From assembly GCA_963777285.1 (NCBI GenBank), contig CAVZPR010000002.1:1293972-1357971 (forward strand): a stretch of DNA of 64,000 nucleotides, read 5' to 3'. The translations under genes were made by a program, and so were the position numbers. Shown in pieces: positions 1 through 64,000 of the stretch. Under the pieces are notes generated by a model, which saw only the letters and a list, made by a program, of their open reading frames with translations, searched no databases and was not told the DNA's origin. The first letter of the stretch is position 1. Each line of letters begins with the position of its first letter. The DNA comes from Candidatus Dormiibacterota bacterium. Its GTDB lineage: Bacteria > Chloroflexota > Dormibacteria > Aeolococcales > Aeolococcaceae.

Positions 1-66
1 CGCGAACAGCGGGTTGATCTCGAGCTCGGCGTCGCCGTCATCGGCGGAGCGATGGTGCAGCGGCAT
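1..66 (-). CDS. 5' end of an unidentified gene running out of the window
   Basis: ATG at 66-64 on the minus strand, preceded by AAGGAG (plus-strand CTCCTT at 74-79). Reads MPLHHRSADDGDAELEINPLFA... to the window edge. Too short to name. Confidence 0.35.
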   Translation of the reverse strand, partial: MPLHHRSADDGDAELEINPLFA

Positions 67-116
67 CGGACGTCTCCTTGTCGGGGCGGGATCGAGTCCG
101 GGTATTGTGCGGCGCG

Positions 117-1031
117 ATGGAGGTGCTGCGGACGCCCGACGAGCGCTTCGCCGGCCTCCCGGGCTTTCCCTTCGCGCCGCATTACGTCGACGTCGAGTCG
201 GGGCTTCGGGTGCACTGCATCGACGAGGGCCCGCGCGACGCCGCTCCGGTGCTGCTGCTGCACGGCGAGCCGTCGTGGTCGTTCCTCTACCGGCGCATGG
301 CGCTGCCGCTGGTGGGCGCCGGGCACCGCGTGGTGGCCATCGACCTCGTCGGCTTCGGCAGGTCCGACAAGCCTGCGGCCCGAGAGGACCACACGTACGC
401 GCGCCACGTCGCATGGATGCAGGCCGCGGTGCGTGCCCTCGACCTGCGCGACGTGACGCTCGTGTGCCAGGACTGGGGCGGGCTCATCGGCCTGCGGCTG
501 GTGGCGGCCGAGCCGTGGCGTTTCGCGCGCGTCGCCGCCGCTAACACCGGTCTGCCCACCGGAGACGAGCGCGTGCCCGAGGCGTTCCACCGCTGGCGTC
601 GCTTCTCGCAGGAGACGCCGGTCTTCGCCGCAGGCAACATCGTCAACGGCGGCTGCGTCACCGACCTCGACGAGTCGATCATCGCCGCATACGACGCGCC
701 GTTCCCCGACGACACGTACACGGCGGGTCCGCGGCAGATGCCGCTGCTCGTGCCGATCACGCCCCACGACCCCGAATCCGCAGCCAACCGCGACGCCTGG
801 GCCGAGCTGCGCCGCTACGAGCGGCCCTTCCTCTGCGCGTTCAGCGACTCCGACCCGATCACGCGCGGCGCGGACGCGCGCTTCGTCGAGCTCATCCCCG
901 GCTGCGCGGGCCAACCGCACACCACGATCACGAACGCCGGGCATTTCCTCCAGGAGGACCGGGGCGAGGAGCTCGCGCGTGTGGTGAACGCCTTCATCGC
1001 CCCCGGCGGGCCGCCGCGCGCCGCCGGGTAG
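117..1031 (+). CDS. haloalkane dehalogenase-type alpha/beta hydrolase
   Basis: ORF 78-1031, likely start MEVLRTPDERF at 117. Motifs HGEPSWSFLYRRM, nucleophile elbow VCQDWGGLIG and C-terminal NAGHFLQED are typical of the HLD family. Confidence 0.85.
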   Translation: MEVLRTPDERFAGLPGFPFAPHYVDVESGLRVHCIDEGPRDAAPVLLLHGEPSWSFLYRRMALPLVGAGHRVVAIDLVGFGRSDKPAAREDHTYARHVAWMQAAVRALDLRDVTLVCQDWGGLIGLRLVAAEPWRFARVAAANTGLPTGDERVPEAFHRWRRFSQETPVFAAGNIVNGGCVTDLDESIIAAYDAPFPDDTYTAGPRQMPLLVPITPHDPESAANRDAWAELRRYERPFLCAFSDSDPITRGADARFVELIPGCAGQPHTTITNAGHFLQEDRGEELARVVNAFIAPGGPPRAAG

Positions 1032-1041
1032 ACTGGGAGCG

Positions 1042-62143: not shown

Positions 62144-62557
62144 ATGGCAGGAGACTTGCCGCCGTTCGACGAGCGCGTCCTGGTCATCGACGACGCGCCC
62201 AGCTTCCGCTCCTATCTGGACATGCGCCTCGTGCAGGAGGGGGCGCAGACGTGGATGGCGGGATCCGGCGAAGAGGCGTTCGAGGCGCTGGAGAGCTTCG
62301 CCCCGACCGTGGTCATCGCCGACATCGTGCTGCCCGGCATGGACGGCCTCGAGGTGTGCCGCCGCCTGCGCGCCGACCCACGCTACCGCCGCATCCCGAT
62401 CCTCATCCTGACCGGCGCCGACCACTCGTCCGACGTCGGTGAGGTGGTGGGGCTGGGACTGATCTGGTACCTGCGCAAGGGGGCCGACTGGCAGCTGATC
62501 ATGCGCACCCTGCGCAATCTGGTGACGCGCGCCCGGGAGATGGCGGTAGCCTCCTGA
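62144..62557 (+). CDS. single-domain response regulator (CheY-like receiver)
   Basis: RVLVIDDAPSFRSYL...VVIADIVLPGMDGLEVCRRLR...PILILTG. Confidence 0.8.
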   Translation: MAGDLPPFDERVLVIDDAPSFRSYLDMRLVQEGAQTWMAGSGEEAFEALESFAPTVVIADIVLPGMDGLEVCRRLRADPRYRRIPILILTGADHSSDVGEVVGLGLIWYLRKGADWQLIMRTLRNLVTRAREMAVAS

Positions 62558-62580
62558 GGCTGCGCGCCCTCGGCGCGCCG

Positions 62581-63792
62581 GTGCTGCTCCGCCGCGCGCT
62601 CCTGGTCCTGCTGCTGGCCGCGGCCGCGGCGTACGACGCCGTCGTCGTCGGCGGGCACTTCGCCGCGCCGCACGCGGCGGGCATCGACTTCGGCGTCTAC
62701 TACCGCGCCGCGCAGGCGCTGGCCCACGGCCGCTCCCTGTACGGCACGCCGCCGCCCTGCTGCTTCAGCGCCGCCGCGATGACCGGGTACACGTACCCGC
62801 CGCTGTTCGCCGCGCTGCTGGTGCCGCTGACCGCGCTGCCCGTCGACGACGCCGGCCGTCTCTGGCTGGCGCTCGACTGCGTGGCGCTCGGCCTCATGGT
62901 GTTCCTCGGCGCTCGCGCCGCGCCGGGGCGGATCGGCGGCGAGGCGCTTGCCTGGATCGTGCTGCTCGTGCTCAGCAGCGGCGCGGTGCTCGCCGCGCTG
63001 TACGAGATCCAGGCGACGCCGGTGGCGGTCGCGCTCGAGGCGGCGTTCGCTTGGACCGTGGTCCGCGGCCGCGCCGCGCTCCCCGGCGGCGCCGCGCTGG
63101 CGCTGGCCGGCGCCGTCAAGGGGTCGCCGCTGCTGCTGGTGCCCTCGCTGCTGGCCGCGCCGCGGCGCTTTGCGCTGCGCTCGCTGGTCGCCGTCCTGGT
63201 GGCGCTGCTGGCGCTCGCCGCGGTGATGCTGGCGCTCTCGCCGCAGGTCTTCTTCTACCTGGGCCACGTGCTGCCCAGCTTCTCCTCGGGGGTGGTCTCC
63301 AGCTCGGACCGCTCGCTGCCGGGCGTGCTGCTGCGGCTGCTGGCCGCGGCAGGCGTGACCCCGCCGGCGGCGCTGAGCACGGCGTTCCTGGTGGTCGAGG
63401 CGGCCGCGATCGCCGTGACCGTGGCGCTCTGCCGCGGCGTGGCGGGGCCGGCGGGACGGGCGCTGGTCGTGGCCGGGTTGCTCGCCGTCATCCCGATCGT
63501 CCAGGGGGTCACCTGGGACCACCACCTGGTGAGCGAGCCGCTGGCGCTGCTCCTCATCGCGCCGCTGCTGCGCCGCTTCACGCCGCGCTGGTGGCTGGCG
63601 GTGGGCGGCACGGTGCTGGCCATGGTCAACCAGCCCACCATCGACACATGGCTGGCGGCGCGGGGCTGGGAGCCGCCGCACGGCGGGCTGCAGTTCACCG
63701 TGTTCGCGCTGCAGGCGCTGATCAATCTCGCCGGCATGTGCGCGCTGTGGCTGGCGGTGGTGTTCAGCGCCCGGGCGGAGCGAACGTCGTGA
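62581..63792 (+). CDS. polytopic membrane glycosyltransferase-like protein (DUF2029/GT87-type)
   Basis: 403 aa with many hydrophobic helices. Extracytoplasmic-loop motif DFGVYYRAAQAL...YTYPPLFAALLVPL, as in GT87/PimE-like proteins. Confidence 0.65.
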   Translation: MLLRRALLVLLLAAAAAYDAVVVGGHFAAPHAAGIDFGVYYRAAQALAHGRSLYGTPPPCCFSAAAMTGYTYPPLFAALLVPLTALPVDDAGRLWLALDCVALGLMVFLGARAAPGRIGGEALAWIVLLVLSSGAVLAALYEIQATPVAVALEAAFAWTVVRGRAALPGGAALALAGAVKGSPLLLVPSLLAAPRRFALRSLVAVLVALLALAAVMLALSPQVFFYLGHVLPSFSSGVVSSSDRSLPGVLLRLLAAAGVTPPAALSTAFLVVEAAAIAVTVALCRGVAGPAGRALVVAGLLAVIPIVQGVTWDHHLVSEPLALLLIAPLLRRFTPRWWLAVGGTVLAMVNQPTIDTWLAARGWEPPHGGLQFTVFALQALINLAGMCALWLAVVFSARAERTS

Positions 63793-64000
63793 CGCACACG
63801 CCGGTCCAGCAGCGGATCGCGCTCGCCGCGTAGCCCGGCGGCAGGTTGGTCGCCGCCTCCCCCGGCTGCGCCATGAAGAAGATGTCGCCATGATTGGCCG
63901 TAACCTCGGAGGGCGCGGCGCTGACCACGGCGCCCTGCGGGTAGGCGGCGGTGCCCCAGAACCAGGGCACGTCGCCGGACACGATGCGCGTGTGCGCGAC
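63764..64000 (-). CDS. 3' end of an unidentified gene entering from beyond the window
   Basis: The frame is open from the window edge: VAHTRIVSGDVPWFWGTAAYPQG...GDIFFMAQPGEAATNLPPGY...CWTGVCVTTFAPPGR*. No family recognised. Confidence 0.3.
   Translation of the reverse strand, partial: VAHTRIVSGDVPWFWGTAAYPQGAVVSAAPSEVTANHGDIFFMAQPGEAATNLPPGYAASAIRCWTGVCVTTFAPPGR

Follow-up and report, generated by a model that had tools for sequence, protein, structure and literature searches.

We examined a 64,000-nucleotide (nt) stretch of a Candidatus Dormiibacterota genome (the window; G000:C2:1293972-1357971) in which the essential gene leuS, the pilus motor genes pilB, pilC and pilT, a type I restriction-modification (R-M) operon and several other loci are interrupted by shifts of the reading frame. 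We conclude, with a probability of about 0.82, that nearly all of these frame breaks are consensus errors produced by two independent processes. One would be a systematic, depth-independent insertion of an extra T at a few percent of GAGTC sites. The other would consist of random, raw-read-like indels of 1-2 nt (deletions outnumbering insertions about 2:1) with occasional substitutions, at a density of 0.3-1%, and would be limited to kilobase-scale patches of accessory, probably strain-variable DNA. This conclusion is built on features seen directly in the DNA: the indels with their clustering and spectrum, the GAGTC motif, and the lack of a substitution load. The source genome (2.85 Mb, 69% GC, in two contigs, C1 and C2) is most likely a long-read, probably nanopore, metagenome-assembled genome (MAG), a platform that we infer.

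The original prediction had used the non-uniformity of the breaks as an argument for real decay of the accessory loci. Clustering is not evidence that breaks are real, because error processes need not be uniform; here two non-uniform error processes are visible and relaxed selection is not.

Essential genes and the genome-wide survey

The window holds leuS (59138-61568, + strand), and a search with TIGR00396 found one leuS locus in the genome, its two frames meeting at about 60270-60298. A break near 60295 had been predicted, with a second leuS as a possible way out. The break stands; a second leuS does not exist in the genome by TIGR00396, the remaining matches being the paralogues ileS, valS and metS. 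The extra base, at 60290-60293 (CTG[C]AAC), is not in a homopolymer. At this site, ATGCT[G/C]CAACAGC, seven of seven relatives are one base shorter, and the congener G002 reads CTG-AAC. Because a frameshifted single-copy leuS could not function, the extra base must be an assembly error. Both argS and nusA are likewise present in one copy each and each spread over two frames. With three single-copy genes broken, at least some of the indels are artefacts, as had been argued from leuS.

The nearest of 40 relatives share about 80-83% DNA identity in leuS, so no sister strain was available, and all 40 are fragmented MAGs. Orthologues for window genes came from G001, G002, G003, G004, G007 and G013 (4-6 relatives per gene), with G002 serving as the same-genus control. 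To find the same population sequenced independently, we looked up a pilin by exact protein match, which returned no record, and scanned JGI metagenomes with a 444-amino-acid pilus gene, which gave a 36% relative as its best match and no near-identical contig. Frameshifts were placed with a purpose-written frameshift-aware protein-to-DNA aligner, validated on leuS, and tblastn frameshift counts were filtered by a frame hidden Markov model (HMM) against shadow open reading frames (ORFs) on the opposite strand.

The frame HMM is a seven-state Viterbi model with explicit frameshift transitions, trained on the codon usage of the genome itself. Genome-wide it called 353 same-strand frame switches away from stops (about 2.5 per 20 kb), a figure that is not an error count because the model yields false positives (27 switches in 400 kb of G002); many of its -1 switches fall on ATGA gene junctions. 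Within the window it called 29 switches where 7.5 were expected (P 2e-9), and 23 of them where 2 were expected lie at 37.2-54 kb; the model is nearly blind across the low-GC island at 4-30 kb. The genome has two hot spots of frame switches, the window and C1:1.28-1.32 Mb. Outside the window the sole large dense cluster is at C1:1.294-1.304 Mb, within a conjugative/Tad element. That element (C1:1288000-1306000) is of the conjugative/integrative kind, with 15 frame switches in 9.5 kb, and encodes VirD4/TraG-like ATPases, a replication-relaxation-like protein, an NlpC/P60 protein and the Tad pilus components CpaF, TadB, TadC and TadE.

Alignment to relatives gave the same uneven picture that had originally been noticed by eye. 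The "dirty" genes hold 56 frame-changing indels in 11.0 kb (5.1 per kb), the "clean" genes 3 in 8.95 kb (0.34 per kb; binomial P 1e-11, with genes partitioned after the counts were seen). The figure of 56 is a lower bound from six loci: pilB (13), pilC (6), pilT (9), hsdM (about 11), hsdR (8) and a nuclease/DUF4268-like gene pair (9). The earlier estimate of more than 50 frame changes in about a dozen loci was right and, if anything, low, since at least 56 lie in these six. Dirty stretches comprise 12-25 kb (part of the island), pilB and pilC, 44.9-47.2 kb and the surface-protein genes; clean ones alternate with them on a scale of 3-9 kb.

A recurrent extra T in GAGTC

Homopolymers and methylation motifs had been proposed as places to look for the cause of the breaks. 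We rejected the homopolymer explanation, as almost all indels of pilB, pilC and pilT, and the leuS insertion, lie outside runs. A recurrent motif did emerge. Among k-mers near the 353 switches, GAGTT (52 events) and AGTTC (51) were enriched (P about 1e-20), and GAGTTC lay within 25 nt of 51 of the 353 against a background of 3.4% (P 6e-18), 47 of these 51 being +1 shifts. The fuller context is (C)GAGTTCG(A), in which a preceding C and a following G(A) are favoured. None of the 27 switches called in G002 carried GAGTTC. Even after HMM filtering, about 8 apparent shifts remain in G002 per 74k aligned amino acids, so its use as a control is confined to the motif class.

The motif lies in the same orientation as the gene in 24 cases and in the opposite orientation in 22, where GACTC becomes GAACTC on the other strand. 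An effect that strikes both orientations acts on the DNA, which excludes translational recoding. A deletion scan put the extra base within the motif or directly 3' of it. A search of five relatives for the 46 motif sites yielded 40 regions; orthologues were available for 22 genes, and in 16 of them the relatives have GAG-TC, placing the extra base inside the motif. On these alignments, a few percent of GAGTC sites are written in the assembly as GAGTTC. About 670 GAGTTCG sites occur genome-wide, some 93% of them read in ordinary frame. The frequency of GAGTC(G) is 0.74-0.78 times that of G002. Together, the GAGTTC errors and the depletion of GAGTC(G) suggest that this bacterium carries a base modification specific to GAGTC. 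Such a modified base would mislead the basecaller or polisher. Errors of this class are scattered evenly over the genome and strike essential genes such as argS.

Base modifications are known to produce recurrent, motif-specific nanopore errors (Chiou et al. 2023 PMC10687267; Lohde et al. 2024 PMC11610573). The pattern here resembles those cases in that one short motif recurs whatever the gene, strand or depth, and in being genome-specific, the congener being free of it. It differs in its product, as the published errors are mostly substitutions (R/Y ambiguity; GCAGC and GCTGG motifs) and ours is a 1-nt insertion. It differs also in that a few percent of sites are affected and the GAGTC modification itself is putative.

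A biological origin of the GAGTTC breaks, through programmed +1 ribosomal frameshifting or quadruplet decoding, would account for one short sequence being common to +1 shifts in 47 genes. We regard it as having almost no chance of being correct. The near-even division between coding (24) and template (22) strands refutes it, the great majority of GAGTTCG sites are read in ordinary frame, as in the Glu-Phe-Asp of leuS, and relatives carry plain in-frame GAGTC.

Individual assignments to the motif class vary in their basis. We placed argS there by motif and direction of shift, its sole orthologue alignment being too divergent to place the base. A break near 31870 had been predicted in the FG-GAP protein gene (31856-31864, - strand); the frame HMM, from which its support comes, does give a +1 switch at CACGAGTTCGAATCG (31864), and the motif, as the sole ground for the assignment, places it in the GAGTC to GAGTTC class, so that this gene was probably hit by such an error. 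Besides 31856-31863, the window holds one further candidate, possibly, at 39130. The leuS break was considered for the same class and rejected: the GAGTTCGA at 60303-60310 (Glu-Phe-Asp) is genuine and conserved in relatives, and it is preceded by the extra base at a distance of 10-13 nt. We see leuS as carrying a lone +1 error outside the motif. Elsewhere on C2, +1 breaks relative to G002 occur at 904660, 891452, 881417 and 899054, in genes that we take, from reading the G002 proteins without a family search, to be metH, thrC, an SDR gene and a TldD/PmbA-family gene. We also looked for a second error motif among the remaining switches and found just CATGA, which corresponds to ATGA gene junctions and thus to HMM false positives. 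The GAGTC to GAGTTC rule flags about 50 false frameshifts in this genome, and may serve for other assemblies from the same pipeline.

Dense indel patches and their origin

In pilB (37276-38929, + strand) there are about 13 frameshifts, mostly 1-nt deletions, and an in-frame TCG to TAG change at 37843-37845. Six frameshifts interrupt pilC (38969-40064, + strand), at 39131-39140, 39219-39226, 39554-39569, 39593, 39716-39718 and 39762. The 8-9 frameshifts of pilT (46073-47215, - strand) are nearly all 1-nt deletions, with shift positions at 47189, 46842, 46826, 46774, 46707, 46629, 46463, 46456 and about 46194; a compensated -1/-2 pair lies at 46984/46967. Across the three genes, the window-private indels comprise 21 deletions of one nt and 6 of two, and 4 insertions of one nt and 3 of two. 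Almost none of these 34 fall in runs of three or more. Single-base indels outside homopolymers are consistent with raw long-read error, which does not depend on repeats, and not with replication slippage, which would. At 0.3-1%, the local density of indels would match that of one modern long read.

Despite their frameshifts, the pilus motor genes keep their catalytic motifs. At columns that are invariant among relatives, private changes number 11 of 148 in pilT, 11 of 217 in pilB and 8 of 106 in pilC (5-7.5%), and nearly all of them, judged by eye, adjoin shift sites or short compensated stretches. In PilB, just one private change falls in a block of 110 residues, and both the Walker and the Asp/His boxes are preserved. 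By this invariant-column test, and by a relative-rate test for HsdR, the broken pilB, pilC, pilT and HsdR look to be under purifying selection. We also considered a polishing shadow from multi-mapping reads and rejected it, because blasting the window against the genome found no near-identical paralogues of pilB, pilC, pilT or hsdMSR. Between pilC and pilT, the stretch at 40100-44600 (+ strand), with pilus accessory genes, two pilin genes and small ORFs, is error-free, showing no frame break against relatives; none was found in 34541-35001, 36392-37021 or 40582-44519. The two pilin genes are in tandem (42652-43141 and 43324-43815), share 90% DNA identity and are both intact.

Another dense patch is in a low-GC defence island at about 6.3-30.3 kb, whose right end is at a tRNA-Thr and integrase. 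The references for island genes were two distant MAGs, L074 (Dormibacteraeota MAG MFD03399.bin.2.21) and L075, which are themselves imperfect, L074 having hsdM in two ORFs and L075 hsdR in three. Against the L074 homologue, the long form of hsdM (13460-15872, + strand) has about 11 frame changes, one of which, near 13804, may be the reference's. The eight in hsdR (17177-20346, + strand) are at 17435, 18550, 19676, 19732, 19880, 19945, 20156 and 20268, and an in-frame TGA stands at 20214. Relative to L074 and L075, HsdR has 40 window-unique against 31 reference-unique changes (P 0.34). On the - strand, a nuclease-like gene (13141-12463) has four shifts and a DUF4268-like gene (12521-11940 and 10552-10241) has five. 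The latter is also interrupted by an intact IS256-like element (10556-11947) with a 408-amino-acid transposase. A second copy of this insertion sequence (IS) at C1:691565-692956 is 99.7% identical, with four substitutions and no indel, and we consider the insertion probably genuine. It is the one lesion of its kind; all others are non-repeat indels of 1-2 nt or single stops.

Residual indels in long-read assemblies are known to fragment genes (Watson 2018, bioRxiv 10.1101/285049), and polishing is needed for nanopore MAGs of less than about 40x (Sereika et al. 2022, PMC9262707). Our case resembles such assemblies (10.1101/285049; IDEEL test; PMC9262707) in that single-base indels break conserved ORFs, essential genes included, and in a reduced marker completeness, here 88.75% in two contigs. 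A depth-dependent error rate is a further likeness, the depth dependence being presumed here. There are two differences: homopolymers are stressed in the publications, whereas almost no indels here fall in such runs, and the patchiness is extreme, with 0.3 errors per kb in places and 5-10 per kb only a few kb away. The dense patches, namely the tRNA-Thr defence island, the pilus locus, the surface-protein genes and the conjugative element on C1, would be places where the consensus rests on very few or mixed reads.

Genuine pseudogenization would read the same map differently, with real indels inactivating R-M, pilus motor, surface and defence genes and only the core-gene breaks being artefacts. 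The broken loci here and in the conjugative element on C1 are indeed accessory and dispensable (R-M, pili, surface proteins, conjugation), as in known decay of accessory or mobile DNA; one gene is disrupted by the IS element, and pilB, hsdR and a surface-protein gene contain in-frame stops. In bacterial pseudogenes, however, substitutions exceed indels several-fold. The 13 indels in 1.65 kb of pilB should then be accompanied by tens of conserved-site changes, and the 11 observed lie nearly all by shift sites. HsdR shows no lineage acceleration, the single-base, non-repeat indels are not a slippage spectrum, and no large deletions were seen. At about one indel per 100-130 nt, the density equals that of raw long-read error and far exceeds what the retained conservation allows. 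The same genome, moreover, carries errors in essential leuS, argS and nusA. We therefore consider genuine decay very unlikely.

Mixed strains deserve more weight. If the dense patches reflect a mixed-strain consensus rather than low depth, reads of co-occurring strains with moderately divergent alleles of genes such as pilB, pilC, pilT and hsdMSR would have been stacked on one contig; the polisher would emit indels where alleles differ, and truly hypervariable segments such as the pilins would recruit their own reads alone and stay clean; dirty conserved motor genes beside a clean 4.5 kb block of pilin and accessory genes would then be accounted for. The patches do lie in loci of a strain-variable kind, and microdiversity is known to degrade the consensus of MAGs (PMC9262707). 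Yet other conserved core genes should suffer alike and do not, and the dirty genes have neither a substitution excess nor mosaic divergence. We hold this explanation possible but on the unlikely side.

Several points weigh against two assembly error processes as the full account. The alternation is sharp (37.3-40.1 kb dirty, 40.1-44.6 kb clean, 44.9-47.2 kb dirty), which requires very low or uneven depth, and a pattern of dirty motor genes, which are conserved, and clean pilins, which are variable, is odd. The frame HMM gives false positives, as its calls in G002 demonstrate, and published modification-linked nanopore errors are chiefly substitutions, not insertions. With two distant references for the island genes, a few genuine lesions there are possible. 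We nevertheless favour assembly error, of a type already known (10.1101/285049); as a biological feature the frame breaks are overwhelmingly not real, save the IS insertion and possibly a few island lesions. More tentatively, and at somewhat less than even odds, the extra T may report a real, uncharacterised GAGTC modification and the dense patches may mark minority or highly polymorphic DNA. If so, the error map would indirectly portray the organism's epigenome and its flexible genome.

Taken at face value, the window implies lost twitching motility, restriction and surface proteins, none of which is supported. Dozens of genes, including aminoacyl-tRNA synthetases, nusA, metH, thrC and the whole pilus motor, are falsely split in a genome that represents its species in a reference set. 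The earlier caution that every pseudogene call depends on the reads is upheld: such calls in the window are untrustworthy until the reads are checked.

Other genes of the window and its surroundings

The three surface-protein genes (47417-53976, + strand) have frame switches, as called by the frame HMM, at 47706, 48508, 48833, 49104, 51463, 51955 and 53714, and an in-frame TAG lies at 50520-50522. The third contains a 315-nt unit repeated 11.8 times (49932-53633; 75% matches) with Invasin_D3/Big_1-like domains; this repeat-bearing gene has two of the HMM switches and one in-frame TAG.

Two island genes had each been predicted to have a single break. The AAA_21/AAA_15 ATPase (7730-8886, + strand) is indeed in two ORFs, split at about 8509, with the N-terminal part of Pfam AAA_21 in one ORF and the C-terminal part in the next. 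The tyrosine integrase is unbroken: with its neighbouring tRNA-Thr (30333-30407) it occupies 29080-30407 on the - strand, and a domain search of its ORF (29080-30234, 384 amino acids) found all integrase domains and no frame break. The region at 12463-21108 is syntenic with L074 over hsdM-hsdS-hsdR-ygjP and two downstream genes (51-76% amino acid identity; 61-76% for the type I R-M operon), which suggests a shared mobile R-M module. A remnant of the IS256-like element lies at C2:45371-45570.

The predicted break near 35425 in the GAF histidine kinase (35052-36340, + strand) proved to be one 1-nt deletion at about 35437. ARAGORN reports a 93-nt tRNA-His at 35178-35270, inside the coding region of this kinase, which is probably a false positive. 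The two contigs, C1 (1,422,614 nt) and C2 (1,423,087 nt), are nearly equal in length, and the two hot spots of frame switches would be about half a genome apart if the contigs were joined; this may be coincidence, or may reflect a split record.

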